This document shows, in pieces, positions 6,077-61,291 of a stretch of DNA of 64,000 bases; the first letter of the stretch is position 1, and every line of letters begins with the position of its first letter. The DNA is taken from the IMG/VR virus record IMGVR_UViG_3300027744_000008; one strand, given 5' to 3'. A program made the translations under genes and the position numbers. The stretch comes from a virus (taxonomy: Duplodnaviria > Heunggongvirae > Uroviricota > Caudoviricetes). The notes beneath the pieces are model-generated. The model saw nothing but the letters and a program-made list of their open reading frames with translations, had not been told where the DNA came from and searched no databases.

Positions 6077-6085
6077 GGAGATATT

Positions 6086-6784: not shown

Positions 6785-6785
6785 T

Positions 6786-7429: not shown

Positions 7430-7772
7430 AATTCCTGCAGAAGGCATAATGAAAACACACGATTGGGGCAACTCAAAAGTCTATCGTGTTGCCTGTAGTT
7501 GTGGCTGTGAAGAACACGATCATAATATGTGGGTTGAAGCAGACGATCACGACATTACTGTTACCGTATTCACTACAACTAAAACTAATTTTTGGTCTAA
7601 GACACGTTGGTATCATATTTGGACATTGTTGACTAAAGGTTATATTGATACCGAATCAACAATTTGTATGACACAACAACAGTCAAAAAACTATGCAGAA
7701 ACACTAAAGTCTGCTATAATAGACGTAGATGAATTTAGAAAGATAAAAAATGAGCAAACTAAAAATAGCTGA
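7416..7772 (+). CDS. Hypothetical protein with a CxCxC/His cluster
   Basis: ACSCGCEEHDH motif; overlaps the queE start. Confidence 0.6.
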   Translation: MMMTEIPAEGIMKTHDWGNSKVYRVACSCGCEEHDHNMWVEADDHDITVTVFTTTKTNFWSKTRWYHIWTLLTKGYIDTESTICMTQQQSKNYAETLKSAIIDVDEFRKIKNEQTKNS

Positions 7773-8598
7773 ACTATTTTACAGTATACAAGGTGAAGGA
7801 AGGTACATGGGTGTACCTTCTGTCTTCTTACGTACATTTGGATGCAATTTTACCTGTGATGGGTTTGGAATGAGCAGGGGAGAGAAATCAAATGAAAGAA
7901 ACATTATTGCAGAAAATGCAGAAAGTTTTAAATCTTATCAACTTCTACCACTTGTATCTACTGGATGCGATAGCTATGCAAGTTGGGATCCACGTTTCAA
8001 ACATCTTAGCCCTCTTCTCGACACTGATACTATTGCCAATACTATTTGTGATATACTGCCTCATGGGCATTGGCAAGATGAGCATTTGGTTATCACAGGC
8101 GGCGAACCGTTGTTAGGTTGGCAACGTGCTTATCCAGAGTTACTGTCACATCCTAAAATGTCTGAACTAAAGGAAATCACATTTGAAACAAATGGTACTC
8201 AAACATTAAGTTCAGAATTTAAAGAATACTTAACAGACTGGGCATTTGGAAGTGATGAACGAGAAATTACATTTTCAGTAAGTGCTAAACTGCCGTGTAG
8301 TGGCGAGAAGTGGGAAGAAGCCATCCTTCCAGAAGTAGTATGCGAGTATGAAAAACGTGGTACAGCATACTTAAAGTTTGTCATTGCCACTGAACAAGAT
8401 TTTGAAGATGCCCAACGTGCTACTGAAGAATATCGTAAGGCAGGGTTTAAAGGACATGTTTATCTAATGCCAGTGGGTGGCGTAGAAAGTGTCTACGCAA
8501 TGAACAATAAAAATGTAGCAATATTGGCTATGAAAAACGGCTTACGATATAGTGACAGATTGCAAGTACCGTTGTTTAAAAATGAGTGGGGAACGTAA
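7750..8598 (+). CDS. queE: 7-carboxy-7-deazaguanine synthase (radical SAM)
   Basis: ELFYSIQGEG, FLRTFGCNFTC...GCDS, ITGGEPLL, FETNGT, LKFVI, YLMP and RLQVPL motifs. Confidence 0.9.
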   Translation: MSKLKIAELFYSIQGEGRYMGVPSVFLRTFGCNFTCDGFGMSRGEKSNERNIIAENAESFKSYQLLPLVSTGCDSYASWDPRFKHLSPLLDTDTIANTICDILPHGHWQDEHLVITGGEPLLGWQRAYPELLSHPKMSELKEITFETNGTQTLSSEFKEYLTDWAFGSDEREITFSVSAKLPCSGEKWEEAILPEVVCEYEKRGTAYLKFVIATEQDFEDAQRATEEYRKAGFKGHVYLMPVGGVESVYAMNNKNVAILAMKNGLRYSDRLQVPLFKNEWGT

Positions 8599-32000: not shown

Positions 32001-35000
32001 GCTAACTCTGTATCATAGTCCATATCTTGAGGCCTAACTGATCCATCACTATTTGTTCTTCTAAATATAAAGCTATCACCAGAGGTTACAGTTAAAGTAT
32101 TTGGAATACCAATAGACTTAGCAACTCCGTCACCTTCAAAAGTAGGCATGATTACATCGGGTTTTGTAAAAATAATTTGTCCCACATATTGCTCATCGTC
32201 AATTCTTACGTAACGAATATTGTTCACTGCTCTATAATATATGTTTATCAACTCTGCTTGTTCAGGTACGTAAGGCAGGTCAACTGGGTATGTTTTATTT
32301 TTAACAGTCATTGAGTCAATGTCATTAGATACTGTTAATAATGCACCATTAATTGTACTACTAACTGTTATGGACGGTATTGCTGTAAATGTACCTGCCG
32401 GAAGGATTACGGTGTTTGCCGAAAGCCCAGAACTAGTATAAGTAAATTCATCGCTGTCTGTTATTGTTACAATTATTCCGTTTTCTGTATATTCACTGTA
32501 ATTAGCACCAGCATTTAAATTAATTTTGTTACCAGTTACCAGTCCATGAGAACTTTGGGTTTTCACATACACTGTTGGAACTGCGGCTGAAACAAATCCC
32601 GAAGGTTCAATAATAGTCGGGTCTGATCCAAAAATTCCTGGGTTAGTTGGATATGCTAGACAAACGGTTGACAGTGTTCTAACTGTAGCAACAAATTCCC
32701 CGTTATAATCTTCATTGTCATTGCCACTGACTGTAAATTTATATCCTTGCGCCAACGGAACTCCTAAGACTGCAAAAGAGAATGTTGCAACTGCTGTTGC
32801 ATTTATTGTTTGGCTAGTCACAGCCTGTTGTTGATTTACAGTATAGGTTCCTAGTCCACCTGCGCCAGTTCCTAAAGAAAGAATATATGTACCTTCTAAA
32901 ACGCTGCCGCCGGTAATTAATTGTCCCACAGAAAGTGTTCCAGAAGTAACGCCAGTTACCGTTAAAACATATCCCGGATTAGTTGTTGCTCCATCATTAA
33001 TTGTGCCTACAACTTCAGCTGGCCCGACTGGAGAAGTTGCTAGTGTAACCGTGACAGTTGGCGAGGTTGATACCGTTAACGGAACTTCATCACCCGGATT
33101 TATATATGTAAATTCATAGTCATTTCTAACTGCATAAATTTCAATCCCAACTTGATTAAAGTCTGGAAGGTCAATACCTTCAATATTAATTATTTGACTA
33201 GAAGCTAATCCGTGTGGAATATCAGTTGTTATCACACTAATACCTTCAAGACTTAATCTTCTAAAAGAAGTAATCTTACTAGTACCAACTCGTTTTATAG
33301 AGTATATTGAGACAGGACTTTTAGGCGCAACCGATGCACAATAATAAACACTGTCAGTGGCAATGCCGCCGATCGAATTACCAGTAAATTCAAGTAATCG
33401 ACCTGTTTCAATATTAGTTGTAGAACTTACTTCAATAATATTTCCATAGCTGTATGTTCGAATAGCCGTAGTATTGATCTGTTTACTGTTAGCTCCCACT
33501 GTGACAATGTAGTCATCAAAGTTAGGATCTTGAGAATCCCACCCGTCTGAGAACCAAGGAGTACTTCCCCAACCTTGGGCAATGTTAAATCCAATTCCAG
33601 TAATTTGCACTCCGCCGTAGTCGACGCCGCGCATTAGTTGTCCTAACTGTTTTCCAAATTCATTAGTTCCTGGTTTGTAGTACCAATTGATTCTGTCAGC
33701 TGCTGACAAATAATTAAAATCTTTTAGATATGTAATCTTAATAACAGACCCCTTGGCCGGTGCTGTCAAGAAGGTTAGTAATCCATAGTAACTTGTATAT
33801 CCTCTAGTTGTGGTCTTTTTGCTGGACAGTATATAAGAGTTTCTAAGAGCAGAAACTTCGTCAATTAGTACTTCCGAGTCGACTAGGTTAATACTTGGAC
33901 TCCATCTTAGGATAAATTGAGTTTTACTTCCGGTTCCAACAAATGCAGAATCTGTGTCGCCTGATTCAATTTCTTGTAGTTCAGTTATATAATATTGGCT
34001 AGTAATTCTGTCAAATTTAATTCTTGTATAGTTTGATCTCACAAGACTGTTGCCAATCCTAGCACTTGCACTTGCACTTACTCCATTTGAATCAAGACCA
34101 CCTTCAAATGACACTGACGGAACTGTTAGATAACCGCTACCTTTCTTAATTAAAGATATCCTTGCAACTTTTCCGTTAGTTAAGTAGGCTCGAGCAGTGG
34201 CTCCGGATCCGCTGTCACTTTGTATAATAACCACAGGAGTGCTTATATACCCAGAGCCTCCATCATTAATAATAATTTCTGTAATTTGAAATCCTATATT
34301 ATCAGTCCAGTTCTTCCAAGGATATTCGTTAATAAATGCAGAATCACTGATTATTTCATTATCTATTACCGTTGCTGGAACTGTGGTAAATCTACCATTT
34401 TCATAGATCGGAGGTAAATCAAAATCAGTTACAACTGATCGAGCAACATCTGTTTTAGAATATGAGCTAACAAATTCTCTAATTTTTGTTCTGTAAGGTT
34501 TAACTTCAGAAATGTAAGATTCAAAATCAGTTAAATTGTCATTATTATAGGTAACTGTTTCTTTTAACTCGCCTACGTTATGTTGCGCTTTAATAAAACT
34601 TGTTTTAAATGCCCAGTCAACATACAGTTGTTCATAATGAACATATCGTAAGCAAGCAAAAAATGTATTGAGATACTCTTGTTTTAAATCGTCAGTTAGA
34701 ATATTATTTTTAATTGATTCTAAAATAATTCTTAATTCAGTCTCTGCTGAATTATCATAACCAGTACCATCATAAGAGGGACCATCATAACCAATACCAG
34801 TATTTCTAAAACTGTAAAGTGTATTTAAAAACTGTATAGTCCCCTTTTCTCTACCAACTACTTTATAAGATCGAGTATAGTCTGATGAAGTACTGGTTGC
34901 ATATTTTTCTAATAATAACCAACCACTAGTACCTACGTTTTTAATTTTAACCAGTTGCCCAATTTCTACAGTCACTTGATTAAGTTCATAGATAGAATTT

Positions 35001-38000
35001 AAAGAAAAGTTTGCAGGAGTAAATTGACTGTATCCATTATTATAAAAATCTACATAATCCCAAAATTTTCTAACATCATACCCTTGACTCTTTACTCGTG
35101 TCCAAGTAAGAGAGTCCGGGTCATAAGAATAAATGCTCCATCTTTCAAGGGCCTGCGAATCAAAATGTACAAGTGCAGAAAATGGTCTTAAAGTTAAAAC
35201 AGTATCATCTGTATAACCTTCACCAGAATTTTCTACAATAACTCCACTGATTCCGCCGCTGACATTTAACACTGTTTTAATTTTAGCATCAATTCCAGTT
35301 CCAGAAATTTCTAGATATGGAGCATAGACGTATCCCGATCCAGGATTATTAATAATGATTTCTGTTATCCTACCATCAATAATTATAGGAGTTAAAGAAG
35401 GATATCTAACAGCGGTTACCCCAATGGTTCTTAATTCTATGTCGTAATCTACAACTACATCGTACTGTCCAAGAATTTTATTTGGTTCTAATTCGTAGCT
35501 ATCCAACGCGGTAATATCTTTTTCTTCAACAATAATATGTTGTAGCATTGTTGCGTTTACACGCTCAAAGTATTGTTTTAGTGCTTCAAATCTGTTAACA
35601 AACATGCTCTGGCGGGGTCGATTTTCAATGCCGTAACGTAATTTAGGGGGTAGCTCAACGTCTGGAACTCGTCTACCATTAGCGTCTTTTCCGCAGAGAC
35701 TGTCTATCCATTTAGTTTCAATAGATGTTGGTATGTTAGTGTTAATACTATTGCTGATCAATTTCCATTGATCATGACTATTAATTGTATAATCATCAAC
35801 TACCCAATACTCGACATATAAGTTAATATCAGTGTGTTCTAATAAATTTTCTACATTGACTAAACTAAAGGTATTTGTTCCAGTAAATGCAACATACTTG
35901 TAACCGTATCCTTTAGGATCAGCTATAAGATTAGACACATCTTTTGCAGATAACTTTCGTCCTTTGACTTCCGGAATAAGAACTTTATTTTTTACCCAGA
36001 AGTAATAAGTGTTTCTAAAACTCTTGGAAACATTATCATATGTACGTTTAATACTATATGCAGAATTTCCATATAAACTAGTACCGCTAATACTAGCAGT
36101 GAATCCCTCTTCAGTATCAGCAATAGCATCCCAATCGTCAGGAAGAAGACTTGACGCTACCCATTCGTAGATATCGATACTGGCTGTCTCGTAGAGTGTA
36201 TTCCAGGTAGAGTTTCTATAAACACTGTCACCATTATAACTGTCTAAAAACTTAGCTCTTGTCAAGTTCCACCATAACGTACCAACATTAGCCGTAGTCC
36301 AGGCTTGTCCGTCATCGATGTTTAGTGTTTCAGTTCCAACAGTGTAGATTGCTGGATCATAATATGTTTTAAATTTAATTTCTTGTTCGGCTATGCCTGC
36401 AATTTTTCCTTGTATTGGATCAATTACATCAAGATAAGAAATTAATTTCTGTGTCTTTTTATTGTACAAGAAAATTTGTTTAATTTTACGTAAGTCAATT
36501 TTGTCAGTTTCTGTCCGTGTAGCAGTCCAAGAATAAACATTTGGTACCTTGTTGTAAGAATAAATCTTACCTGAAGTAGTATATGTGGCATCAGTTGCGT
36601 TAGATGCACTAGCAATAATATAATTGTTTGCAGCTACTAATTCAATACCGTAATCATCATTATTAACATTAGTAGTTGTTAAACTTTCAGCAAACACCCA
36701 TTTAGTAGAATATCTATCATAGACGTCAATCCTTCCAGAGTCAGTGACAGTTGAACCATTTTGTATAGTATCACCGTTGGCACTAGAAATTACAAGAGTT
36801 TCATCATTGTTCATGAAGGCAACTTTTGCGCCATATCCTTCAGATCCTTCTGGTAGTCTACTTGTTATAGTTTGATATACGGTATAAGAATCGTTAACCA
36901 GTTTATAGATAGTAACACTTCCTTGATTAGTGCTAGTAGTTTTATTTCCTACAGCAATATATGTTCCGTCGTTTGACACAGTAACGCTATAATCTGCAGA
37001 GGTTGCTAATGATATATCATCAATTAATGTATCATCTGCTGAGTATACAAATATTTTTCCAGTGCCGTTACCGTAGGCTGTGACTGCAATAGTTGATCCA
37101 TCTTTAGATGTAGCAACTGTATTTCCAAAATAATCCGCGGCTGCTGCGGATGACCCGAATGAAACGCCCACAGCAGTCCATTGCAGGATATCATTCTCAA
37201 CAGTATAGTTAAACTCGTAAAGTCTGCCAGCAGCATTGTTTAACTCGGCAGCAACAATTAGTTTATTATCATCTGCAAATTTTACAGTTGATCCAAACTT
37301 TTCGTCGGCAGCTACATTAGGTGATAAGATAACTCTGTATAATGAATATTCATTAGCGATGTTAAGTTTATATAAACAAACTATACCTTGATTATCAAGT
37401 CCACTAGTTTTAGCAACATATTTTAAACAATTATTCCCATGCATTTTATATTCAGTATTATCATAACCAGTAATCAACTCGTGTGATGGGATATGGCCTG
37501 CATCAGAAAATTCACTGTTAACAACCACTGTCATTTTACCAGTGTCGTCTGTCATAGCATATGAACCACCGGGCACAGTAGGAATACCAAAAGTATTCCC
37601 ACCTAAGGTTTCACTAATTGTAATTATTGTGGCACTATAAATGGATTTAATATAATAAGTAGTTGTTGGATCTATTCCACCAAACGAAGATCCAAAAAAT
37701 CGTAATCTCATTCCTACAACCATACCGTTAGTTGTACCAACCGTAATGTATCCTTTATCAATACCGGAAACTTGAGGTGTAGTTGCAGTGGCCACTGTGG
37801 TAAGATTTCCAATGGTGGCAGTTAAAGTAGCAGAAGGTACATCATATTCAGTCCATTCTGCTAAAATAAAATCGCCCTCAGTTGAAGAATTAACTGTGCA
37901 TTTATACAGTACATGGTCATATAAAACTATGTTATTGAGAACATAGGTTTCATTAGTTTGATAGATTCCTTGATATTCGATATCAAATTGAGCAGTTGTT

Positions 38001-41000
38001 AAAGTTAAAGCTGCACCAACACTGTCTTCTACATCAGGATCATTTATATCAGCTGTGGCACTAATAGTAATTTTATATTCGTTAACTAGAGTCTTTACAT
38101 AATACGGACCTACACTTGATACTAAATTGCCAAATGCAGTGCCATTGAGTACTACCGGCATACCTATATGGATGCCGTCTGTGCTAGTAAGAGTTATTTG
38201 ATTTGTGCCGCTGACCGTAGACACCACTGTGGCTGTAACGTGCGGTACTGCTTGATAATAATTTATAACATTACCACCTTGTGGTACTCTAACATATAAA
38301 TTATCGGCGATTGCAGCACCTGTGGCATTAGAGTTAGGATCTGAGTCAAACGATAATGAAGATCTAACTATAGTATATTCAGCTTTGTTTTCACCGTCTT
38401 TTGATAGTATATTTCCCGACTCGGGAGATCCAATGGCTAACCAATTTTTATCATTAGATATTGAGATACTATGTCCAAAGGATCCTAGAGGGGTATCGTG
38501 CCAAAACGCATTAGGTGGATCATATGCTGACACATAATTAAATGTTAAATTAATATTTTGATTTCTTGTCCAAGAGGAACTATAGCCAGCACGATTATAA
38601 ATTACAACACTATTTTTAGCGGTAGATACTGCAAGTGTAGATGCCGCTGGGTCAATAGCTAGAACCTTGCCGAATTCTAACCCGTTAGCAGAATCTTTAT
38701 TTTGTATGTTACTAGCTGCTGAATAAACTAGATCGTACTCATAAACAGCCCATTTGCCTTGTCCATTATTGTCAACCCACAGTAGTTCGTTATCTTTAAT
38801 CTTTTTAGGAATTTCTACATTTATATCATCGATGTTGTCTATCTTTTGACTGTCAAAGTAATATACTTTAATCTTATCATCATAGACTATCACTGTTGGA
38901 AAGTCAGCAATCGTTGCTGTTACATTAATGATGTCGCCAACAATACTATCAATTTTGTAAAATCCTTGTACGTCGGTTATACCAGTTAAACCTAGATAAT
39001 CACCTTCTTCTAAATAATTTACTGAATCTACTGTTATCGATAAAGTAGTATCTGTATACTCTAATAGAGAAACACTACTTTCTGTATCAGTGATCCTATA
39101 GATATTCCAATAGACTGATGGATTTTCAAAAGCTGTCCACACATAATCACCTGGAGAAAACTCAGTGACATCGTATGTTAACAGGTCAGCTAGAGTATCC
39201 ACATTGGCTGCAACTTCGTCTATTCTAATATAACCGGGAGTTCTTAGATAAGGACTGTAATTATTATTAATTGGCCACGGATTTGAATTGTAGCTCATTG
39301 GTTTTAAGTAGACGTCGTTAGGCGTTTGTCTAATTACAAAGTCAACTAGGTTAGAGTCTATGTTATTAACTAGCTCAAACGCCTGCGGTTTGTTTTTAAA
39401 TAGGCTTTCGTCTAATTCAAACTCAATTTGTTCAAACGTATCAATAGCACCATACTGTCCTACACGAACAGCCCATTCTTCAAAGAACGTGAGACTTTCT
39501 TGATTATCAGCACTTAGTACATCAAATAATTTATTAAGAACATTCTGAGTACCTTTTTCAATAATCATCCCTTGATAAAACTTATACTCACTAATATCGT
39601 CTTTAATAATATTTTCAAGATACTGACGTTTCTGATAACCTATCAAATGTTGTGCAATTTTTTGTTGTCCTACATCAAAGTTATCACTGTCTAAACTATA
39701 AAAATCAGTAAATTGTTCTGCTTTATATGACCAGTTAGGCAGTAATCTAGATGTAGGTTTTTTAGATAATTTAACCCAGTCTTCACTTACAAAATCACTT
39801 GTTCCAATCAATTTGCTAGTTGCGCTGTAGTAAAACTCTTTATACTTAACAGTATCACCTATATTATAGGCTATCCAAGATTCCCAATCTTTTATCACTG
39901 CTTGATCATAGATGAAGCCGGGAATATTAAATCCGCCATTCCATCCAGTTGATACATAACTTAGTACTTTTATTTTTTCTTGTCTGTAACCTGTACGTGG
40001 ATCATACAACGTGTCATTAAATAATGTTGAATTATCTAATAATATCACATGTTCTTTTTGCACAAAATAAAATGTTGCTCCGTATATCCCATCGCCGGTT
40101 GTAGTATAAGATGATTGGTTATCATCTCTATAAGAATTTAAAAAATCTTCATCTAATTTAGTGCCGTCTACTTTAAAAAATTCATATACATTAAATTGAT
40201 CTTTAATATCATCAATAACTGATAATTTAGAATTAATAATTATAGTGTTAGCCGATGGGCTTAATGCTAGAACACTTGCACCAACTGTTGATAATCCGTC
40301 TAGTTTAGTCCAATTATTTTCTAAAAATAAATCGCTAGCATCTATGGCCACCTCTGCCTTGTAATAATCGCCATCAAACTTTACAATCTCCCCTGCTTGA
40401 TAACTATCGGTTGGTAACCAATCTTCCCATTTTTCTACGCCGCTTGACCAATTCTGAGTGGTCCAGAATAAAAATTCTTTAGCACTAGTTACCCAATTAC
40501 AAATTTCTCCTATGTTTGCATTAAATTCATCAAATACAAAACCTTGATCTTTTAGATATTCTCCGTACCCTACTAAAAAATCTACAACTTCTTGTATTGT
40601 TCTAAATTTAGTACTGTATGCAGCCGTGATAGGAGTGGTCCGATCCCATGCAGTTCTAATAAGGACTGTTTTGCCGCCGTTAATAGGAAGTGAGGGTAAT
40701 GAGCTATAATTTAAAGGATTAAATGTATCATTTGAAGTATGTGTTAATGATGCCCTATAATAAGTAGTGCCATACTTAACTATTTTTCCGCTGGAGTACA
40801 ATTGATTAGGTGCCCATTCAGTAAAAGATTCACTGATGCCGCCTACGTTTATGCTATATCCGGGCGAGGTCCATCCATAATAGTAGAAGTAGGGACTAGA
40901 TTTGCTATACCCTTTTACTTCAAATCCAGTTGATAATTTTGTTATAATTACACCACTGTAAACTAACTTCTTTATAGGACTAGAAGAATTTAAAAATACT

Positions 41001-44000
41001 GAATAATTTTCTTGAGGAACATAAATTCCACTAACTGCTGTAGGAGATTTTGAATCTAACAGTATATTAAATCTTTCTTTTTCAGTAAATCCTCCAACAC
41101 GATAAGATAACTGCATCTTGCTATAGAGTAAATCATACTTGTACTGATCTAAAGATCGTTGATTGTCGTGTTGAATATAGTCAACAATGTAATTTACAAG
41201 TCCGGCAGTTTGCACTCTTTCAGTGTCGGTGTAGATGCTTGGAATAATAATATCTTCCAAACGAAGTCTTAACTGAGTGTCTTTATAAACTATTTGATTA
41301 GACACATCTCGATAAATTCTTGAACGATCAAACAATACACCCATAACTTTAGCAGGATATGTTAGTAAAAGAGTTGAAATTATACTAAAAGAATAATACG
41401 AACTTCTGCGCCACGCACTTTCTATTGGACTAACATCTCCAAATATAAAATCTTGTCCTGTTATTTCTGTAACAAGGCCGCTGGCTAGATTGTTGTCTGT
41501 AGGGCTAACAATATTCCCGTCTTGATCAACTGGCAAATAGTTAGTCAAATAAGGTTTAACGTATTTTGGATTTCGATACACTGGTTGTCCTGGAACCTTA
41601 ATTATACCTTCGCTAATATCTTGCCACATAACCTTGTTATCCGATGTATAAGGTGCTGGACCATATTGTTCAACCCACCAAGACGGCACAATACTAAATC
41701 CCAACATTTCCCACGGACATATATTGGGTCTATCAGTGTCATATATCCAACGATATATGCCTCTCCAATAACCTGGTAATTCTCTCCCATCTGGAGCAGA
41801 TAATCCTCTATAATTAAAAGTTAAAGGATTATACTGATCGTACGATAAAGGTTTTGAAAAATCTCTATTAATCAAGGTAGTCCATTGATAGAAAGAAGGT
41901 GCTAACACTTTATTAAATTCATCTAAAGAATAATCACCAACTTGACTATAACGTGGTATTAAATCATTAACATCAAAGATATCAGTATTATAATTTACTT
42001 TTATATTGTTAAAAATTCTTTTTTCTAATTCTAAAAGTAGATCATCTCTATAGTCTCCATAAGCCAAGACTATGCTACCGTCATGCCCCTGGATAACTTC
42101 TCTAGGTGTTAAAAGGCTAGTGTCTAAGTATTTTTTAGGCTCAAATTTTGGCCACATTCCTAACTTAGTAGGTGTAGCCGGAACATAACTGCCGTCTGTA
42201 CTTTCATATTCTACAATAGTGATTGTATCATCGTTGGCTACCACTGCGCTGTTAGTTAATACTATAAACCCATCAGAGTGAAATGTGTAGTCTATTCCAT
42301 ACAATAATTGATTACTATTGATATAAACTAGTACAGCTTTAGAAGATAAAGTATCTAAACTATATGTTTCAGTCAATGGATATGTTTTAGTTCTATAGTC
42401 AACTACTGTTATGTTTGTAGTAATAGCTGGTCCAGTTGGAATCATATCACTAAAATAATAAGACGATATCTTAGGTTTATTCTTATTAATTTCGGTTAAA
42501 ATTAAATCAACGAACGGAACGGTATCTGTATCAATTCCTAGATTTTCTGAGATGTTTATAAAATTACGTTTAAATGCACCGTAATCGTTTCTTGCTTGCT
42601 CCAAGGCTTTAAGAATATTATTTGTTTTATTAGTAATATGATAAAGAGCTAGAGGCAAAGCCCCTTCATGTTGTACAAATCTTGTACCATAAGGACTAAC
42701 ATTGCCTAAATCTCTTAGATTGCTTGCGCCAAGATATTCACCGTTAAAATTATCTAGATTATCTATAATCGAATCTACATGATCAATAACTTCACCTAAT
42801 GTAAACTCAACAGGGTTTTCATTCATTGGATTATTTTGAAGATTTATAGGAAGCTCGTAATATCCGTTTGAATTTTTTACTTGTGAGGAAAAAGTTTTTA
42901 ATGTTATAACATCGGTTGCTTGATAATCAATTCCGGCAGCCGTCATAATGTCTACATTAAAATAGACATACTTAAATCTAGTACCGTTTTTAATTTCCCA
43001 ATATTTTTGATCTAATCTTTTTCCATTAATATAAACCCTAACTTCAAGATCAGCAAGGGCAGTTATATTATCGTAAACATCTATATCAAAATTGTTTGTC
43101 TTATCAGGGTCTCTATAAATTCTTACCACTGGTTGATAACGGATAACACTGCTACGTTCCCAACCAGACACATATGATATGTCAGTTAAACTATTAAATT
43201 TCACTAGTTTTCCAACAGCAATGGATTGTGTTGTTACATCAATAACTCTTTTGTAAACAAACGTGTCGCTTAACAGGTTAAAATTAAAAACAATGTCGCC
43301 AATATTATTAATATTCTTGTAAGATAATGGAAATCCTAACTTACTGTCGTTAGTGCCAGTGCCTATTTTATAAGAAAAAAGTTTTGTTCCGATAAAACTG
43401 GTGCTGTCATATACAGTGATATCTCCATAACTATAACCATCCGCATCAACTACGTCAAACAACGGTGCTTGATTAACTCCGGTTTTTTGTTGCCCTTTAG
43501 TCCAAGTTGTGCCGTTATAATAATATGTCAATCCTTGATTATTAACACCAAATTTAACTATTATTGATTGATTTTCTATGGGTATAGCTTCTTCAACTAA
43601 ATGTATCTGACGTTGAAAAGATTCTCCCGGAGGAGTGACTCTAACAAAGTCTACCCTATAAATTTTATTTTTTACAAGTATGTCAGTGTCGGCTAAAAAT
43701 AGTACACGCTGTCCTTGAGTTAGATTAATACCATCAACAATATACCCAGTTTGCCCTTCAATATTTGAAAATACATCTGTAGTAAACGTATCTATGAGAT
43801 CAACGTCAATAGTAGCTTCTAATCCAAAATTATATAATTTTATACCAGCTTCAAACTCGATAATAGGACGAAGCGCCCTAGCATCTTGATCTAAACTTGC
43901 AATTTGTCCATTAACTGTATAACTTGTTTCGATTACACTTTTATGATACCATCGATTGTTACGTGCCCACGGGTTTCTATCTTTACTTCCTCGATTAATA

Positions 44001-45130
44001 ATAACATAGTCTTTAGATGAACTATAGGTTGTAGCAACATCAAATGAGTACTGATCAAAAGGACCATCATCGAATGGTACATCAAAACTATCTGTACTAC
44101 TAGTAATAAGTTCTAGATCGTTTTCAAGAATTAATTGTATTCTTGTACCAACACCTTCTACATAATACTGGCCAGTTTTATAATTTTCAGGAGTAACATT
44201 ACCTTTAAATTGCAATTTCATTCCATTGCTTAACTGAGTACCGTCAGATAATTTGAATGTTTTTTTACCTACTACTTCGTTCTCAACATCAATCGCAGTA
44301 TTTTCTTTAATGTCATATATTTTAAAAATCCCTCCTAGATTAGGATCGTTCTCACTAACATAATAAAGAACATTGGGGGCTTTTTCAGGAATTTTTATTG
44401 TGATCGTGCCGGACTCTACCGCGTATGTAGTATCATTCCCCCAATTGTATCGATCAACCACACCGGCAGTTCGATCAGTTTTGATGCTGAATGGCTCGCC
44501 TGGACTGTCAATTTCAAAGTGATATGTTTGGCCTCTATACAGTTTTAAAGGCGGATTTCTATCTAACCCGTTAGGAGTAAGAAGATATTCTTTATATCCG
44601 CCAGCGTCATCTATCTTTACTGTATAGGTGCTCTCAATTTTTTGTTGTAACCCATAGACATTAATGACCGGAGGTCCGTATGGTAGCCAGTAATATTGTT
44701 GGAAGTTAACAAATTTGTCCCAGTCCACATGAGGATTCCAAGAGTACAGCTCTTGGCGATTTAGACGTTCATGATTATCGATATTTGCGCCGAACACCCC
44801 TAGTTGATTTATATAATCAATATAGTCTTTATAAAATTCTACATTACCCAGTGTATCTGTTGACACTAGGCTTGGCTCTAGCTGATAATTTTTACGCTGT
44901 GTATTAACTGCTTCAACAAAAATATCGTTAGTAGTAGATGATTTAGCATTTCTTCTACCAATAAACCCTGTAACTTTTCTTACGGCGCCTGGCTGAGTAA
45001 GTTGGTCAAGAGTAGCTTGAACAAATTTTTTATTAGAATCAGTTCTATAATATCTTGGCAATAGTTCAGAATTTCTTCTTTTACTATTTTTTGAAATTGG
45101 AACTGGATTTTCAGATTGATCGTTGTTCAT
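29027..45130 (-). CDS. Giant (5367 aa) virion structural protein, probably a gp7-like baseplate wedge scaffold with adhesion modules
   Basis: Uninterrupted 16.1-kb ORF directly after the gp6-like gene; LLPRYY N-terminus and [10 protein letters not shown]; FG-GAP-like and CBM5/12-like repeats. Confidence 0.75.
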
Positions 45131-54495: not shown

Positions 54496-55320
54496 ATGAC
54501 TAAAGTCAATTACCTAAATAATAAAGATATATTAGAAGAAATACACCGCTCAAAAAATACATTTTCGAGCTATACAAAGCCAGAATACAGTCGATACGAC
54601 CTTATACTGCCCAGCGTGGACAAGATTAACATACGTACAATCGCTGAAGCAAAGCGGGCTAAAGCCAAGAGACTCGGGCATCAAGAATACGATCGAAGAA
54701 AGACCGCTGGCGAAAAAGTCAAACAAGCAGATTGCGAGGTTGACTATAAGAAAATTGCCAAAACAGATGTGGTATTTCGTATTATGACCTTTGAGCATAT
54801 ACCGTTAAACACTGTTAGAAAACGTAATCCAAAGACCATAGCTGATGGACGGGATAAAGTAAACTTCCCTCCGTACCAACATTGGAAATACAACGAAACC
54901 GATGAACTAGAGTGTGTGGGTAAAAGTCATTGGAAGGGCGACATGGACACTGGTGCCTTTAATAAAGATCACGGACAGATAACAAACACCTTAGCACGTA
55001 TGTTTATCAAGCTCTGCGAACGATATGCTACACGTGGAAATGTTAGAGGATACACATATAATGACGAAATGCGGGGACAAGCCATTCTACAGCTAACGCA
55101 GATTGGTCTACAATTTGATGAATCGAAGTCAGATAACCCGTTTGCCTATTATACTGCCGCAGTTACCAACAGTTTTGTAAGAATTATTAACATAGAAAAA
55201 CGTAATCAAGGCATTAGAGACGACATATTAGAAATTAATGGTATGAATCCTAGTTACTCTAGAACCAACAGTGGAGAGTACGAGGCTGGATTGAATAGAT
55301 TTAACGAAGGTACTGAATGA
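54496..55320 (+). CDS. Late-transcription sigma factor, T4 gp55-like
   Basis: NYLNNKD N-terminus; RGYTYNDEM...FDESKSDNPFAYYT....SFVRIINIEK; sits upstream of gp47/gp46 as in T4. Confidence 0.8.
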   Translation: MTKVNYLNNKDILEEIHRSKNTFSSYTKPEYSRYDLILPSVDKINIRTIAEAKRAKAKRLGHQEYDRRKTAGEKVKQADCEVDYKKIAKTDVVFRIMTFEHIPLNTVRKRNPKTIADGRDKVNFPPYQHWKYNETDELECVGKSHWKGDMDTGAFNKDHGQITNTLARMFIKLCERYATRGNVRGYTYNDEMRGQAILQLTQIGLQFDESKSDNPFAYYTAAVTNSFVRIINIEKRNQGIRDDILEINGMNPSYSRTNSGEYEAGLNRFNEGTE

Positions 55321-56327
55321 GTTTATTCAAAAAAATTGCCTGTTTCACAGACATACACTTTGGTCTTAAGAGTAATAGTCATACACATAATCAAGATTGT
55401 TTAGATTTTGTAGACTGGTATATCGCCAAGGCTAAAGAACAAGGATGTGATACTGGAATCTTTATGGGAGACTGGCATCATAATCGTAATAGTCTTAATA
55501 TTACTACCATGGACTATAGTCTTAGAGCTTTAGAAAGGCTGGGTCAAGCGTTTGATCAGTTTTATTTCTTTCCAGGTAATCATGATTTGTATTATAAAGA
55601 CAAACGAGACATTCATTCTGTAGAATTTGGCAAGTATATTCCAGGCGTTACTGTTGTTCATGAACCTACAACCGTAGGTGATGTACTACTTTGTCCGTGG
55701 TTAGTAGGTGATGAGTGGCGTAAAGTAGAAAAGTCAAAGGCAAGATATTGCTTTGGGCACTTTGAATTGCCATTGTTCTACATGAATGCCATGGTACAGA
55801 TGCCGGATCACGGTGAGATACAGCTCAAACATTTTAAAAACTTTGAACTAGGCTTTAGTGGACACTTCCACAAACGCCAGCAAAGAGAAAATGTTGTCTA
55901 TATCGGTAATGCTTTCCCCCACAACTATGCAGATGCATGGGACGACGAGCGAGGCATGATGGTGTTAGAATGGGGCGGACAGCCTGAATACTTCACTTGG
56001 GATGATCAACCTAAGTTTAGAACTATTAAACTTAGCGAACTGATCGATGGTGCTGATACCATAATTAAATCTAAAATGCACTTCCGTGTAACATTGGATA
56101 TTGATATTAGCTATGAAGAGGCGAGTTTTATCAAAGAAACTTTCATGAAAGACTACGATATTCGTGAGCTAACCCTAGTTCCCGAGAAGAAAGATGTTGA
56201 AGTTCACACTAACATTGACATACAAGCCTTTGAAAGTGTCGACGAGATTGTCAGTAAACAGATTATTAACATACAAAGTGAACAATTTAAAGCCAATACA
56301 CTGTTGGCAATATACAATAGCCTATGA
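55317..56327 (+). CDS. Recombination endonuclease subunit, gp47/Mre11/SbcD-like
   Basis: Metallophosphoesterase motifs DIHFG, GDWHH, GNHD, FGHFE and SGHFH. Confidence 0.9.
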   Translation: MSLFKKIACFTDIHFGLKSNSHTHNQDCLDFVDWYIAKAKEQGCDTGIFMGDWHHNRNSLNITTMDYSLRALERLGQAFDQFYFFPGNHDLYYKDKRDIHSVEFGKYIPGVTVVHEPTTVGDVLLCPWLVGDEWRKVEKSKARYCFGHFELPLFYMNAMVQMPDHGEIQLKHFKNFELGFSGHFHKRQQRENVVYIGNAFPHNYADAWDDERGMMVLEWGGQPEYFTWDDQPKFRTIKLSELIDGADTIIKSKMHFRVTLDIDISYEEASFIKETFMKDYDIRELTLVPEKKDVEVHTNIDIQAFESVDEIVSKQIINIQSEQFKANTLLAIYNSL

Positions 56328-58108
56328 TTCGCATTAAGGATTTAACAGTTAAAAATTTTATGAGTGTTGGTAACCAGACTCAAGCAGTGAACTTTTGTCG
56401 AGAACAACTAACTCTTGTCTTAGGTGAGAACTTAGATCAAGGAGGAGACGACAGCGGAAGCCGTAACGGCACTGGTAAAACTACAATTATCAACGCATTG
56501 AGCTTTGCACTCTTTGGTCAAGCACTGACTAACATTAAAAAAGACAATTTGATCAACAAGATCAATGTTAAAAACATGTTGGTCACGCTGACATTTGAAA
56601 AAGACGGGCAAGAATATCGCGTTGAACGTGGTCGTAGACCTAATATTTTAAGATTCTTTGTTAACGATCAAGAGCAGGCCAACGAAGAAACAGACGATGC
56701 ACAAGGCGACATGCGTGAAACGCAGAAAGACTTGGATGATATTCTAGGCATGAGCCACGATATGTTTAAACATATTGTTGCGCTTAATACCTATACTGAG
56801 CCGTTTTTATCCATGAAGGCAGGCGAGCAACGTGAAATTATTGAGCAGTTGCTGGGCATTACCTTGCTGTCTGAGAAGGCAGAATCTCTTAAAGAGCTTG
56901 TTAAGACTACTAAAGATGATATTATACAAGAAACTGCACAGATAGAAGCTACAAAAAAAGCAAATGCAAAAATCGAAGAGGGTATAGCAGGTTTAAAACG
57001 TAGACAAGACTTATGGTTAAGGAAACGACAGGAAGACATTGAATCGTTGGCGCTGCAATGGTCTGAATTAAATCAATTAGATATAATAACAGAACTACAG
57101 TCACACAAAGACCTAACTGCGTATAATCAAAAGCGTAAAACAATTGACGAACTTAATAAACTTATTGCTCGGTGCGTTGCCGACGAAGCAAAAGAAACTA
57201 AACAATGTGAAAAACTTAAAAAAGAAATTGTAGATTTAGAAGATCATAAGTGTTATGCTTGTGGACAAGACATGCACGACGAGAAACATGAACAAGTTCT
57301 AGCAGACAAACAAAAGGCATTGCAAGAAGCGGCACTACAGGCACTGTCTACTAACACTCAGTACATAGAAAATACCGATGCGCTTACTGTGTTAGGGGAA
57401 CTTGGTCTTCAACCTACAGTGTTTTATAGTCGAGAAGAAGATGCTATCAATCATAGAAATACAATTCAAAATCTTGAACAGCAGATAACTGCCAGAGAAT
57501 CTGACGAGGATCCCTATCAAGAACAAATTGACGAGCTAAGTGAGACTGCCCTACAAGAAATTCTTTGGGATAAAGTAAATGACTTGAATAATCTTAAAGA
57601 GCATCAAGAATTTCTACTAAAGTTGCTGACCAGTAAAGATAGTTTTATTCGTAAAAAGATTATTGATCAAAACTTAGCCTACTTAAACAATAGACTAACA
57701 TTCTATCTTGACAAGATGGGCTTGCCACATAGTGTAACGTTCTTAAATGATCTCACTGTGGAAATTACGCAGCTTGGACAAGATTTAGACTTTGATAACT
57801 TGTCCAGAGGTGAACGCAACAGACTTATCCTAGGATTAAGCTGGAGTTTCCGTGATGTATGGGAAAGTTTGTATCAGAATATTAACCTGCTGTTCATTGA
57901 CGAGCTCATAGACAACGGGTTAGATGCCAGCGGTGTTGAAAGTGCGCTGGCAGTATTAAAGAAAATGGCACGTGAACGCAACAAAAACATATATTTGATC
58001 AGTCACAAAGATGAATTAATTGGTAGAGTAAACAACGTTCTTAAAGTGATTAAAGAAAACGGCTTTACCAGCTACGAGCATGATCTTGAAGTAACAGATG
58101 AGCAGTAA
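56324..58108 (+). CDS. Recombination ATPase subunit, gp46/Rad50/SbcC-like
   Basis: KNFMS, Walker A NGTGKT, coiled coil with CYAC zinc hook, LSRGE signature, LLFIDE and ISH. Confidence 0.92.
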   Translation: MIRIKDLTVKNFMSVGNQTQAVNFCREQLTLVLGENLDQGGDDSGSRNGTGKTTIINALSFALFGQALTNIKKDNLINKINVKNMLVTLTFEKDGQEYRVERGRRPNILRFFVNDQEQANEETDDAQGDMRETQKDLDDILGMSHDMFKHIVALNTYTEPFLSMKAGEQREIIEQLLGITLLSEKAESLKELVKTTKDDIIQETAQIEATKKANAKIEEGIAGLKRRQDLWLRKRQEDIESLALQWSELNQLDIITELQSHKDLTAYNQKRKTIDELNKLIARCVADEAKETKQCEKLKKEIVDLEDHKCYACGQDMHDEKHEQVLADKQKALQEAALQALSTNTQYIENTDALTVLGELGLQPTVFYSREEDAINHRNTIQNLEQQITARESDEDPYQEQIDELSETALQEILWDKVNDLNNLKEHQEFLLKLLTSKDSFIRKKIIDQNLAYLNNRLTFYLDKMGLPHSVTFLNDLTVEITQLGQDLDFDNLSRGERNRLILGLSWSFRDVWESLYQNINLLFIDELIDNGLDASGVESALAVLKKMARERNKNIYLISHKDELIGRVNNVLKVIKENGFTSYEHDLEVTDEQ

Positions 58109-58352
58109 GCATGACGACATTATGAGTGCGGTTCGAACATACTTCGAAGCAAATCAAAAGTGGGAAGTAGAGAGGACCAAACGGTCTTCTATACAGCTAC
58201 GGCAAAGTCTAAGTAGGATTAGAGAATTATGTTCAGATCAACGTGTAATTGTGCGTGAATGGGCAAGGATTAAAGAGGCAGAACTAGCAGAAAGAGAAGC
58301 AAATCGACAAGCTCAGAAGAGACAGCAAGCAGAGGACAGTGATGATAACTAA
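58098..58352 (+). CDS. Small basic helical protein
   Basis: 84 aa, overlaps the gp46 stop. Confidence 0.6.
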   Translation: MSSKHDDIMSAVRTYFEANQKWEVERTKRSSIQLRQSLSRIRELCSDQRVIVREWARIKEAELAEREANRQAQKRQQAEDSDDN

Positions 58353-58357
58353 TTGCC

Positions 58358-58783
58358 ATGACATGGTATTTCCAAAATGAAATTATTGAATCGCTGCCCG
58401 AAGATTGTGTTGGATTTGTGTATCTGATTACAAATAATATCACAGGCAGAAAATACATAGGCAAAAAATTAGCCAAATTTGCAAAGACCACATATAAAAC
58501 AGTAAAATTAAAAAACGGTAGCAAAAAGAAAAAGAAGATTAGATCTAAGATTGATTCAGATTGGCGCGATTACTACGGGTCAAATCTAGAATTAAGCAAA
58601 GACGTAGACACACTAGGCAGAGAAAATTTCAAACGAGAGATAATGTTTTACTGTAAAAGTAAATCAGAATGTTCTTACATAGAGGCCAGAGAACAATTTA
58701 CACATAAAGTTCTAGAATCACGCGATTACTATAACGGACAAATTTCAGTCCGTGTACATGGCTCACACATATTAAAATCATAG
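58358..58783 (+). CDS. Stand-alone GIY-YIG (Seg-like) endonuclease domain protein
   Basis: GFVYLITN....KYIGKK, YYGS, FKREI, conserved E (YIEAREQ) and YYN; only 141 aa, with a Lys-rich insertion. Confidence 0.85.
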   Translation: MTWYFQNEIIESLPEDCVGFVYLITNNITGRKYIGKKLAKFAKTTYKTVKLKNGSKKKKKIRSKIDSDWRDYYGSNLELSKDVDTLGRENFKREIMFYCKSKSECSYIEAREQFTHKVLESRDYYNGQISVRVHGSHILKS

Positions 58784-59219
58784 GCTCCTAAGCGGTATAA
58801 GCAAGCACAAGCTAAAGTCGTGTGCCCACGCCAACTCGATAATAAGAGGGACGGAAATCTCTAGCCGCCAGAGTACTCAATCACTACCCGAAAGGATGAT
58901 GATAGCAAAGCCCTTGCTGTTTGATTGTTTTAGAAATAACAGGCGAAATGAGGGTGAGAAACCCACGTTTGCTGGCATGTTAGCGTATGCAAGTAGACCG
59001 CCGTCGTAATAAAGACTGAGCTCGAGGTACCGGACGACCGCCTCTGCAATGCTCTAACGCTAGGTGACATAAGTGCAACTCAGATAATGTCCATTTCTTT
59101 GCCCGGTCAGGGCAAAGTGTGACTGAACAATCTAGATAATATCTTAAGTGCTTCGCACAATTACTTCTAGATAAATGCATTGAGCCTAGCGAAATGCATG
59201 TGAGCGTGAGCTCACATTT
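58784..59219 (+). ncRNA. Candidate large structured non-coding RNA (family unidentified)
   Basis: Longest intergenic stretch in the window; about 48% GC by hand count over 58801-59100 in a visibly AT-rich genome; about 10 stem-loops including GNRA-capped helices. Strand is inferred from the GNRA loops, G-U pairs and terminal hairpin. Confidence 0.6.
59198..59219 (+). terminator. GNRA-capped hairpin, possible intrinsic terminator or 3' end of the RNA
   Basis: ATGTGAGC-GTGA-GCTCACAT followed by a short T run. Confidence 0.5.
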
Positions 59220-59227
59220 AATAAATA
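59220..59227 (+). promoter_or_regulatory. Late promoter motif AATAAATA
   Basis: 20 nt upstream of ATG 59248. Confidence 0.55.
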
Positions 59228-59247
59228 AACTATAATCCACTATTCCT

Positions 59248-60249
59248 ATGAAAATTAAAGACATTATCTCTGAAGCAGGACCTACTAGCTATGTGCCAGC
59301 TAGTCCTGGAAGTTCTATTGTTGTCCCTACTTCACTGAGTCCTAATGGGTCTACTATTCCTGTTGCTGCTAGCGGTGGTAGTGCAGCACCTGCTGCTAGC
59401 GGTGGTAGTGCAGCACCTGCTGCTAGCGGTGGTAGTGCAGCACCTCGTCCAAGAGCTCAACGTCAATCAGGTAAACGTGCCAGTGCTCTTAGACAGCAAC
59501 GAATCAAAAATGCAGTTATTAAGATGTCAACTATTGGCAGTGGTCGATACAAGAATATGATAAACATGAAGTATTCGAAGTTTACCGCTACAATGATTAT
59601 TCCTCTTAGACTACTTCAATTTTTAGGCCTTGGAGAGATGATAGTAGATTTTGGTACCACTGTTTCTACTCTGAGAACAATGAAGGAGTTACCAGAAGGT
59701 GATCCTGGCCATATTACTGAACAAGAATATGATGATAATTGGCGACAGGCTTTAGAATTATTGGCCGTACAAATAGCTGCCAGTGCGGCACTTCCTAGAT
59801 TAATACAGGCCTTTACCCTAGGTAAATGGGTCACTAGAATTTTAGGATTTTTAGGTACAACAGCAACATGGGGCGCTACACTTGCAATATTTGTAGCATC
59901 TGAAGTGGCCATGATCGCTTTTCAAAGATGGTTAACTAGTCCAGAAGGTAGAAAACAACTAACGTATCTAATAGTGTATGTTATAGATCCATTGGCTACT
60001 TGGTTATATCCCACATCTTTTGTTGACAAGATAAAAGAGATAGTGGGTATAGAGACTAAAAAGACAGATGATAAGAAAAAAGATCCCAACGCACCTAAAA
60101 CAGATACTGGACAAGCAGCACAGCCTAAACCTCAGGGACAAACAGATACAACTATACCTACTGCTAACGTACCGCCGAGTTATGTAGGTAATCCTAACGA
60201 TCTAATGAAGCGCGATGAGCCAAAAGTTAAATTTGCGATGGACATTTAG
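59248..60249 (+). CDS. Putative internal/ejected virion protein with hydrophobic segments
   Basis: MKIKDIISE leader, low-complexity linker and several hydrophobic helices; late promoter upstream. Confidence 0.55.
   Translation: MKIKDIISEAGPTSYVPASPGSSIVVPTSLSPNGSTIPVAASGGSAAPAASGGSAAPAASGGSAAPRPRAQRQSGKRASALRQQRIKNAVIKMSTIGSGRYKNMINMKYSKFTATMIIPLRLLQFLGLGEMIVDFGTTVSTLRTMKELPEGDPGHITEQEYDDNWRQALELLAVQIAASAALPRLIQAFTLGKWVTRILGFLGTTATWGATLAIFVASEVAMIAFQRWLTSPEGRKQLTYLIVYVIDPLATWLYPTSFVDKIKEIVGIETKKTDDKKKDPNAPKTDTGQAAQPKPQGQTDTTIPTANVPPSYVGNPNDLMKRDEPKVKFAMDI
59365..59445 (+). repeat. 3 x 27-bp perfect tandem repeat encoding AASGGSAAP
   Basis: GCTGCTAGCGGTGGTAGTGCAGCACCT repeated three times, in frame. 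Confidence 0.95.
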
Positions 60250-60470
60250 ATCAAAGGCATCTGAGTTTTTTCTGTAATTTCTATATTTTCTTTAATAATC
60301 TTAGACATTATTTCTCTATCTTCAAATGAATACAGATAGAGTAGATCGTTGATAGTTACACCACCGCGCATGTACCAACTGGTTCTAAACATATTTTCTT
60401 TAAGATTTTTTGCGCTTGCATCGAGGCTGACTAGATATGCTTCTATGTCAGAGTTAGGCATTTCGATCAA
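60246..60470 (-). CDS. gp51-like baseplate hub assembly protein, probably made as a -1 frameshift extension of the upstream gene
   Basis: No visible SD; lies in the -1 frame after T TTT TTC; SWYMRGG...EDRE motif. Confidence 0.6.
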   Translation of the reverse strand: MIEMPNSDIEAYLVSLDASAKNLKENMFRTSWYMRGGVTINDLLYLYSFEDREIMSKIIKENIEITEKTQMPLI

Positions 60471-61291
60471 GCGCCGACGAAAAAATTTGATTGATCCATT
60501 TGTATTGCCACTAAGCTGTCGTGTCCGCAGGACTCACATTTGACCTTCATCTCGGGCACCCTCCATGTCTGATTGTTTTTTTCTATCTGTAATTTAATAG
60601 CATCAAACATACTTTTTTCTGAGTTGATAATCCATTCTGTAATGTATTCTCTCTCGTTGACTACTCCTGCAGGCGCTTGTACACTTTCGATACTTTCAAT
60701 ATAAGATTCATTTTGTATCACAGCTAACTTTTCATAGAGCTCTGCAATTACTTTATTCTTAGCATCTTCATCCTCAACGTCTAAAATTTGACGCAGTTGG
60801 CGTTGTAGCTCAAAGTTTTTTATATTGAACTCGGTCATTTTTTTATAGTTCAACGGTCGAATAAAAATAGTTAGGTCGTCTATAACAACTTTATTGTCAT
60901 ATTTGCAACTATTGAAATGATTAATCAAAGACATTAAGTCTACATCGTATTCATTATCACTTCCGCAGTTTGGACAAATATGTCCGATGTTCATGCCGTT
61001 GCCATAGGTAGCAATGCGTATTGCTACTAAGATTTGATCTAAATCTAGATTACAGACTTCCCAGGCATTTTTAATGTTTGGCATACAACTTTGTAGCACA
61101 CGCACTGTGGCATCACCGTTCATAAGAGCATCGGGTGTCTTTAACAGCAGTTCATCCATACCAGTCATAGACATAACTGGTATTTCTCCAGTGGCATTAT
61201 CCACTGCATCTCCGCTGTAGTATACGCCTTGACTGGGCAACCGTATATAGATTTTTGGCTGGCGGAAATATTTTTGTAGCGGATTGTTCAT
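60467..61291 (-). CDS. Baseplate hub assembly chaperone, T4 gp26-like
   Basis: LPSQG.YY, DELLLK, DLDQILVAIRIATYG, two CxxC pairs (CPNC, CESC) and a C-terminal NFF. Confidence 0.75.
   Translation of the reverse strand: MNNPLQKYFRQPKIYIRLPSQGVYYSGDAVDNATGEIPVMSMTGMDELLLKTPDALMNGDATVRVLQSCMPNIKNAWEVCNLDLDQILVAIRIATYGNGMNIGHICPNCGSDNEYDVDLMSLINHFNSCKYDNKVVIDDLTIFIRPLNYKKMTEFNIKNFELQRQLRQILDVEDEDAKNKVIAELYEKLAVIQNESYIESIESVQAPAGVVNEREYITEWIINSEKSMFDAIKLQIEKNNQTWRVPEMKVKCESCGHDSLVAIQMDQSNFFVGA
60479..60485 (-). other. Putative programmed -1 ribosomal frameshift site T-TTT-TTC
   Basis: Minus strand reads AAT TTT TTC GTC GGC GCT TGA; the -1 frame reads TTT CGT CGG CGC TTG ATC GAA ATG straight into ORF 60246-60470. 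Confidence 0.65.

Follow-up and report, generated by a model that had tools for sequence, protein, structure and literature searches.

A knotted RNA with twin words beside a GIY-YIG nuclease gene of a T4-related jumbo phage: a candidate RNA-primed replication origin

A non-coding element that follows a small nuclease gene in the window (the whole 64,000-nt stretch of phage DNA analysed here) specifies a folded RNA on the + strand. It carries two identical 7-nt words that are matched in cis, occurs independently of the nuclease, has evenly spaced look-alikes in cultured giant phages, and is carried by bacterial islands behind a late-type promoter. Because its anatomy offers a counterpart to each step of priming at ColE1, at T4 origins and at DNA mini-hairpins, we give about an even chance to the proposition that it is an RNA-primed R-loop origin of phage DNA replication, resembling ColE1 RNA II and ending in a tail of DNA mini-hairpins.

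Setting and anatomy of the element

The window belongs to a jumbo phage that is related to T4 and falls in the Rak2/PA5oct group: its late sigma factor shares 48% identity with the PA5oct counterpart and about 41% with that of 121Q; the genomes of its relatives reach up to 345 kb. The gene order is sigma factor, gp47, gp46, an 84-aa ORF, the 141-aa GIY-YIG nuclease, a gap of 464 nt (58784-59247), and a 333-aa ORF. The features are as follows:

54496-58108, + strand: upstream operon of late sigma factor (gp55-like), gp47 and gp46 (PHROGs 12791, 100 and 77)
58098-58352, + strand: 84-aa ORF of no recognised family
58358-58783, + strand: stand-alone Seg-type GIY-YIG nuclease (PF19835) with a basic beta-hairpin insert; probable branched-DNA resolvase
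58800-58930, + strand: 5' domain of the RNA, Rfam RF01718 Polynucleobacter-1 (subtype B has another 5' domain)
58967-59063, + strand: knotted core, defined by covariation, comprising the G-U-rich helix 58967-58998 and pseudoknots 1 and 2
59018-59054, + strand: nested helices, likewise from covariation, around the near-invariant GGTACCGG..ACCGCC
59078-59088, + strand: twin word copy 1, ACTC followed by the 7-mer AGATAAT (59082-59088); the putative RNA strand in pairing with the template
59097-59117, + strand: hairpin separating the twin words, a + strand fold (16 internal G-U, 1 A-C)
59130-59140, + strand: twin word copy 2, ATCT followed by the identical AGATAAT (59134-59140); the putative DNA landing site
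59148-59217, no strand assigned: tail of short hairpins (59148-59158, 59184-59190, 59198-59217) of the DNA mini-hairpin type
59221-59227, + strand: late-promoter-like ATAAATA ahead of the next gene, read from the sequence; a motif of phage CBB (PMC5259590)
59248-60249, downstream of the gap: the next gene (333-aa ORF)

The gap had been described as the only long gene-free stretch, with a G+C content of about 48%. It is real and G+C-enriched, at a measured 46.3% (58784-59219) against 36.9% for the whole window. A crude list of gaps holds two longer entries, one of 552 nt (2857-3408) free of ORFs of at least 70 aa (shorter ones being uncounted) and one an artefact that arose when an overlapping ORF was dropped. 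Within 57900-59400 neither a sigma-70 promoter nor a terminator stands above chance.

Fold, strand and family of the RNA

The gap is conserved among 80 loci found through the nuclease protein and, wherever the following gene runs in the same direction, measures about 410-520 nt. The alignment, drawn from 168 loci that contain the core motif and are flanked by sufficient sequence, comprises 84 type-A and 35 type-B rows of less than 95% identity; the counts that follow are Watson-Crick plus G-U pairs in the 84 type-A homologues. The original prediction of a highly structured + strand RNA is borne out: most of the helices and two pseudoknots covary. GCACA/TGTGC pairs in 409 + 5 of 418 instances, ATCA/TGAT in 334 + 1 of 336, GAGC/GCTC in 312 + 5 of 335, and GAGG/CCTC in 333 + 1 of 336. 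Pseudoknot 1, joining TTAGCGT (58980-58986) to ACGCTAG (59057-59063), pairs in 520 + 23 of 566, and covariation is also seen in GTGC-TTC-GCAC and the terminal hairpins. The long helix 58967-58998 assigns the RNA to the + strand, since its 1092 instances include 770 Watson-Crick and 250 G-U pairs against 3 A-C oppositions.

Some of the helices proposed at the outset fare less well. The pairing of GGGT/ACCC and of ATAGCAA/TTGCTGT holds in part only; ATGCATT/AATGCAT contributes none of the 95 strongest covariation signals; CGG/CCG is invariant across homologues and so lies beyond the reach of a covariation test. The pseudoknot proposed between GGTCA and TGACT is unsupported, because the GGTCA loop varies freely; another one (pseudoknot 2: GTCGT, 59003-59007, with ACGAC, 59034-59038) is supported. 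(A technical note: folding of the single sequence beats shuffled sequences modestly, with z -2.2 and 3 of 100 shuffles equally good. In an alignment of the core with 55 rows, pairing is found in 93.4% of cells, against 79.6% after shuffling, with 0 of 500 shuffles as high, and pairing drops to 30-60% in slid controls.)

The RNA had been thought to match no known family, which is wrong for its 5' domain: RF01718 is matched over its entire model (1-141) at 81.6 bits, the gathering threshold being 37. Weinberg et al. 2010 (PMC2864571) list Polynucleobacter-1 as a probable RNA and give its function as unknown. The model accounts for about 130 of about 420 nt and lacks the knotted core, the twin words and the tail; subtype B and the cultured-phage copies go unmatched by it. 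Beyond that third, the RNA, its twin words and the cultured-phage copies lie outside every Rfam family, and no description of any of these was found in the open-access literature. Rfam returns no match to group I or group II introns, RNase P, GOLLD or ROOL; a group I intron with a P7-like GACAT/ATGTC was considered separately and rejected, with no Rfam match and weak pairing. Blastn of the RNA finds nothing in cultured phages and nothing in plasmids, and a pattern scan of genome contigs yields three matches, all by chance and within genes. Metatranscriptome contigs from four runs cover the junction of nuclease gene and RNA, and the neighbouring genes, at similarly low depth from which strand, ends and level are not readable.

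Twin words

Of the signals that pairing leaves unexplained, the strongest joins columns separated by 52 nt, and what these share is identity rather than complementarity. The two 7-mers are identical, by alignment column, in 115 of 119 rows (shuffled mean 22.7, maximum 35); of the four exceptions, three are slips of the alignment, judged by eye, and one is a true 1-nt mismatch. On a tree of the RNA with 84 rows the word itself undergoes at least 36 changes, and it differs between the window and a neighbour that is 94% identical. In an independently found set, a shared word of at least 7 nt is present in 41 of 46, against a mean of 5.8 across loci; in the bacterial islands discussed below, the twin words match in 44 of 51. 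The unit that they bound is 47-59 nt and not of fixed length, and no third or complementary copy occurs at a consistent place between -700 and +400 in 84 loci. The 11-mer that includes the word is near unique within a genome.

Matching is local and in cis, since paralogues of one genome differ from each other yet match internally. Record G003 has two elements, one with AGATGAA/AGATGAA and one with GCATGAA/GCATGAA (the element other than the main copy, at 165.7-166.2 kb, adjoins no recognised nuclease), and the paralogues within G018, G019, XaC1 and G013 have different words, each self-matched at the positions that vary. A genome-wide protein-binding site was rejected on this ground; readings of the word as a CsrA-type GGA, a dif-like site or a -10 box are broken by the identical-pair variants ATGAAGA, GACAAAA and GTGTCAAG.

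Physically, identity would be explained most simply by pairing of one copy with the template strand at the other. What do the exceptions say? Several mismatches (L060; L511, L529, L546 and L555; by eye also L381) have G in the first copy and A in the second, the direction that rG-dT wobble would allow if copy 1 were the RNA. Others are of a different kind: at position 7, the A of copy 1 faces a G or T of copy 2 in L378, L390, L419, L510 and L537; the words of L527 and L533 match at 5 of 7 positions, and many cultured-phage copies have G against T or C at one position. These mismatches, mostly at the last position, do not fit rG-dT wobble.

Identity of two words might also serve the DNA directly, in slipped-strand pairing, recombination or initiation of packaging, with the RNA as a separate scaffold or regulator, for example of packaging or genome organisation. 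A strand-exchange overlap likewise needs two identical words, the hairpins of the tail are DNA-like, the even spacing of copies described below would suit any cis-acting mark on a genome, and islands could hijack packaging under a late promoter. We nevertheless consider this unlikely: the hairpin between the words folds only on the + strand, by its 16 G-U to 1 A-C, and words, core and tail form one unit that travels together in phages and islands.

Two further readings keep the words at the level of RNA. Template jumping is a property of telomerase and of defence reverse transcriptases; if the RNA were a polymerase's template, the words could be points of alignment or re-entry for such jumping, generating repeats of the 47-59 nt unit. 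Exact direct repeats do bound a hairpin unit downstream of a knotted scaffold. The variable length of that unit, the absence of a recognised reverse transcriptase among the scanned neighbours, and the absence of a joined or repeated form in the four RNA contig sets leave this reading a small chance. The near-invariant unpaired core within two pseudoknots, together with a bulged A in copy 1 of the cultured-phage elements, suggests instead a ribozyme or self-processing RNA whose words mark either alternative folds or sites of reaction, and which takes no part in replication. This we find equally improbable, for the words have no complementary partner in the RNA, no gene is interrupted, and no Rfam ribozyme or intron is matched up to E 10, nor up to E 1 in seven homologous loci.

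Does the RNA belong to the nuclease?

The original prediction was of a ribonucleoprotein, and the RNA does usually adjoin a short GIY-YIG gene. A search from the RNA side scored 104 of 120 motif hits as the element, 61 of them with room upstream: 51 have the GIY-YIG gene adjacent, 6 have it behind an inserted gene and 4 lack it. A second motif gave 77 loci, 65 with the gene adjacent, 5 with it behind an insert, 5 with a PD-(D/E)xK gene and 2 with something else. (The genes between GIY-YIG and RNA in L100, L101, L109, L122, L138, L015, L071 and L417 are unrelated and encode about 250-360 aa.)

Compact nuclease genes that adjoin a structured omega RNA are familiar from IscB and TnpB, and the likeness is plain. 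A guided or scaffolded nuclease would perhaps nick copy 2, with copy 1 as its guide and ATCT as an adjacent motif; the frequent adjacency in phage loci, the basic hairpin and retained catalytic residues of the protein, and the near-unique 11-mer all speak for it. The linkage is not obligate. Neither nuclease is present at any of 91 island loci; RNA without GIY-YIG is also found in G003 and G002; PD-(D/E)xK genes take the place of GIY-YIG; PF19835 is above cut-off in 0 of 11 cultured-relative records; and the Kyanoviridae P-SSM2 and Melnitz have homologues of the nuclease and no such gap. GIY-YIG proteins that are 90-92% identical adjoin RNA subtypes whose 5' halves do not align, so that nuclease and RNA subtype are discordant, and no nuclease residue tracks the variable 7-mer. 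Nor do the phage loci compared show a guide with matches elsewhere: their sole variable matched word is the 7-mer, and its partner lies inside the same element. The IscB/TnpB comparison breaks down on obligate linkage, co-evolution, transposon ends and a variable guide matching DNA elsewhere, and we regard a nuclease-RNA ribonucleoprotein as highly improbable.

What, then, is the nuclease? The 141-aa ORF matches Pfam SegE_GIY-YIG (E 1.7e-32) and is, as had been noted, a catalytic domain alone, with no C-terminal module. Its basic insert is modelled as a beta-hairpin (strands 40-50 and 56-66, mean pLDDT 96). Y22, Y33, G35, K37, Y72, S75, E109 and N126 are invariant in 80 rows, and a median pN/pS of 0.076 (57 pairs) indicates purifying selection with the catalytic set kept. 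The catalytic domain and its conserved active-site residues are those of Seg-type homing endonucleases; the C-terminal DNA-binding modules of that class are missing, and the gene sits in a fixed slot rather than being patchy or mobile. A PDB sequence search gives no match below E 0.27 and Foldseek with the model none below E 0.001, the one relevant fold match of the predicted structure being the I-TevI catalytic domain (probability 0.95-0.96, E 0.18).

The slot is informative. Its PD-(D/E)xK occupant is PF24608 / PHROG 244, 'RusA-like resolvase', and the GIY-YIG and PD-(D/E)xK families exclude each other in five records (one more than 90% complete). The same region holds an Endo VII-annotated gene in 121Q, XaC1 and RaK2 and a PD-(D/E)xK gene in PA5oct and Phosso. 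The 121Q Endo VII-annotated protein matches XaC1 and finds no match in G007, G003, G008 or PA5oct. P-SSM2 and Melnitz have the short GIY-YIG and neither of the other resolvase families, with T4 and Phosso positive as controls. The complementary distribution looked for in a Holliday junction resolvase is accordingly found in the records tested, among which G007 is the sole freshwater record at least 90% complete. The PF02945 profile matches 0 of 12 freshwater records, T4 being positive as control in a separate run. (The 121Q gene annotated endonuclease VII, L212:4518-5009, has no PF02945 match either.)

On balance we lean slightly toward a putative housekeeping branched-DNA nuclease, a reading that agrees with the complementary distribution of resolvases reported for jumbo phages (PMC7824862). 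The protein would then probably be a junction resolvase; its gene is an exchangeable neighbour of the RNA. It may be compared with structure-selective GIY-YIG nucleases such as Slx1 and with phage resolvases (PMC7824862): its GIY-YIG domain stands alone, and relatives fill its slot with Endo VII-annotated or PD-(D/E)xK genes. It differs in its Seg-like sequence. PHROG 447 and many RefSeq records call this family 'NAD synthetase', apparently a mis-annotation; the family has matches in 498 phage records, and if the resolvase reading is true these widespread 'NAD synthetase' proteins would be resolvases.

Look-alikes in cultured giant phages

Relatives of the 836-nt gap of 121Q occur in 73 phage records, at 4-5 places in most of them. 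There are 4 copies in 121Q, 5 in XaC1 and 3 in RaK2, on one strand in each genome, and 5 in GAP32-, CBB- and Yersinia-phage-sized records and in G018; in 121Q-like genomes they lie at about 90.6, 193.1, 247.8 and 326.9 kb. The core arrangement is the same, and pseudoknot 2 pairs in 35 of 35 distinct cores, in three variants. The twin words read AYC-A-N-CGTCAR and AYC-N-CGTCAR around a C/G hairpin, copy 1 having a bulged A. (Another technical note: of 46 cultured-phage copies, six lack the core by pattern, the RaK2 words were read by eye, and the set was chosen partly by motif.) Homology is weak: the freshwater-core covariance model scores 10-17 bits (E 0.09-2.5), and the best profile match to the cultured-phage element is at E 7e-4.

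In each of the six genomes tested, the spacing of copies is more even than random (P 0.0002-0.03); the six tests are not independent, since the genomes are related, the copies orthologous and the positions rounded. The G018 spacings are 67, 80, 81, 63 and 75 kb. Co-orientation of the copies is expected in genomes whose genes are mostly on a single strand. A resolvase-type gene is absent from the flanks of most copies, and the gap after gp46 in RaK2 lacks the element. G007 (345 kb, 99% complete, freshwater) has one detectable copy; in 15-kb windows its GC skew does not flip there and follows gene direction.

Multiple copies raise the question of whether this might be a selfish non-coding element spreading among jumbo phages and islands. 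Two RaK2 copies have near-identical 3' halves and HNH-like genes stand beside some copies (by eye); the fixed slot and single copy of the freshwater clade, the orthologous even positions, and the lack of any visible target-site pattern make it very unlikely.

Some details deserve recording. The RaK2 copies in question (L238 and L242, at 280.0 and 191.6 kb) are almost identical over more than 300 nt, which suggests recent duplication or conversion. The HNH-like genes are near L240, L246, L247 and L248; adenine-methylase-like genes, also by eye, follow L243, L237 and L238. PA5oct has three paralogous gaps, one of which lies within ncRNA004, described as transcribed by Lood et al. (PMC7318152). 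Profile HMMs do not link the gaps of PA5oct, Phosso, Xoo-sp13 or RAS14 to the RNA, the likeness in PA5oct being by eye. Xoo-sp13 and RAS14 have another conserved non-coding element (L215:7718-8414, L216:3763-4582), 700-820 nt long and near a baseplate-hub gene, that RNA profiles leave unmatched.

Bacterial islands

Rows of the 2010 RF01718 alignment (PMC2864571) lead to loci with the complete element: a motif taken from it finds 91 metagenome loci (L491-L581), 89 of which match the type-A profile. A DUF6641 gene is upstream in 57 of 58 and a tyrosine integrase downstream in 43 of the 45 with room. TAAATA stands 60-140 nt upstream of the RNA in 53 of 53 distinct island regions and in 1 of 252 background windows; for CBB and GAP32, PMC5259590 predicts ATAAATA as the late promoter. 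These small integrase islands may be jumbo-phage satellites, and the pattern fits satellites that activate the element during helper infection. (Some islands, for example L532:4324-6999 and L529, have an AAA ATPase; short ORFs start like phage late proteins, with MKLDEII or MRMYEIA.)

An RNA-primed origin

The earlier suggestion of a link to replication or recombination is probably right as regards replication. How might the element work? In ColE1 a folded RNA of 550 nt primes, and a stretch of it pairs with the template strand in a persistent hybrid (PMC5043065, PMC4412123). By analogy, 1) RNA polymerase would pass word 2, and there the folded transcript, its inter-word hairpin keeping word 1 near, would present word 1 to the template strand; 2) pairing of word 1 with the template would nucleate a persistent R-loop; 3) RNase H or a flap nuclease would trim the RNA to a primer; 4) the displaced strand would expose the mini-hairpins for loading of helicase or primase. 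Islands would be copied by the same unit of RNA, twin words and tail during helper-phage infection. In homologues the tail loops are for the most part cGNAg and cTTCg, the latter reading cGAAg on the opposite strand, the ten commonest terminal-hairpin loops including cGTAg (46), cGCAg (12) and cGAAg (7). Mini-hairpins of the cGNAg type are described as far more stable in DNA than in RNA and as occurring at the G4 and ssiA priming sites (PMC13037366).

In favour of an RNA-primed origin are the identity of the twin words in cis, the G/A mismatches, the evenly spaced look-alikes in several copies, carriage by islands, the DNA-type terminal loops, the ColE1 precedent and an RNase HI gene near the slot (adjoining it in Phosso and, by eye, in L096). 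Against it stand the single copy of G007 and its lack of a skew flip, the weak homology of the cultured-phage copies, the RaK2 gp46 gap without the element, the mismatches of other kinds and the lack of any plasmid match. T4 R-loop origins, moreover, manage without structured RNA, and 350 nt of knotted RNA seems more than priming requires. The strand-skew inflection expected of origins in general is not seen in G007; two T4 origins are likewise placed outside skew shifts in PMC3016281.

The comparison with ColE1 RNA II extends, in our interpretation, to a long folded RNA, downstream template pairing, signals on the displaced strand, and RNase H nearby in some relatives. As in ColE1-type origins, a stretch of the RNA equals a downstream stretch of the non-template strand and is matched in cis; here it is a variable 7-mer 47-59 nt from its twin and not a G run, the element is multicopy, and no antisense RNA I is seen. 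Neither Rfam nor plasmids offer a match to ColE1 RNA II or RNA I. The element, if the reasoning holds, works like a ColE1-type origin; it is not a homologous member of that class. T4 itself has five origins or more, and R-loops have been demonstrated at two of them (PMC3016281). OriF and oriG would share with the element a T4-related phage, several origins and a transcript-primed leading strand; they differ, as PMC3016281 portrays them, in that a promoter and an A+T-rich unwinding element make up each origin, the T4 origins having neither a motif in common nor a structured RNA.

One can take the idea further, to an origin that dispenses with a protein initiator: a ribozyme-like knotted RNA with a reprogrammable 7-nt word would invade its own DNA and make the primer end, Rak2-like phages would space several such elements along their genomes, and satellites would carry one under the helper's late promoter, stealing its replisome. 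As a whole this is rather doubtful. The open-access literature yielded no mapping of Rak2-like jumbo-phage origins and no function for RF01718. An origin here would give a function to a family unexplained since 2010 and point to a family of jumbo-phage satellites. The twin words may bear on the means by which a folded RNA locates its own template, which reviews of ColE1 and T4 leave open, and the copies in 121Q-like phages, which grow on laboratory E. coli, offer exact coordinates for origin tests.

Other features of the region

Irregular tandem repeats of about 27 and about 12 nt, iteron-like, lie between the PD-(D/E)xK gene and the RNA in L353:15550-15690 (G003, 275.55-275.69 kb). In the window, a baseplate-hub chaperone ORF at 60246-61291 (- strand) overlaps a 74-aa ORF; a tail region on the - strand (29027-45130) includes a 5367-aa ORF; and GTP cyclohydrolase and QueE-like genes at 5020-8598 suggest synthesis of 7-deazaguanine.
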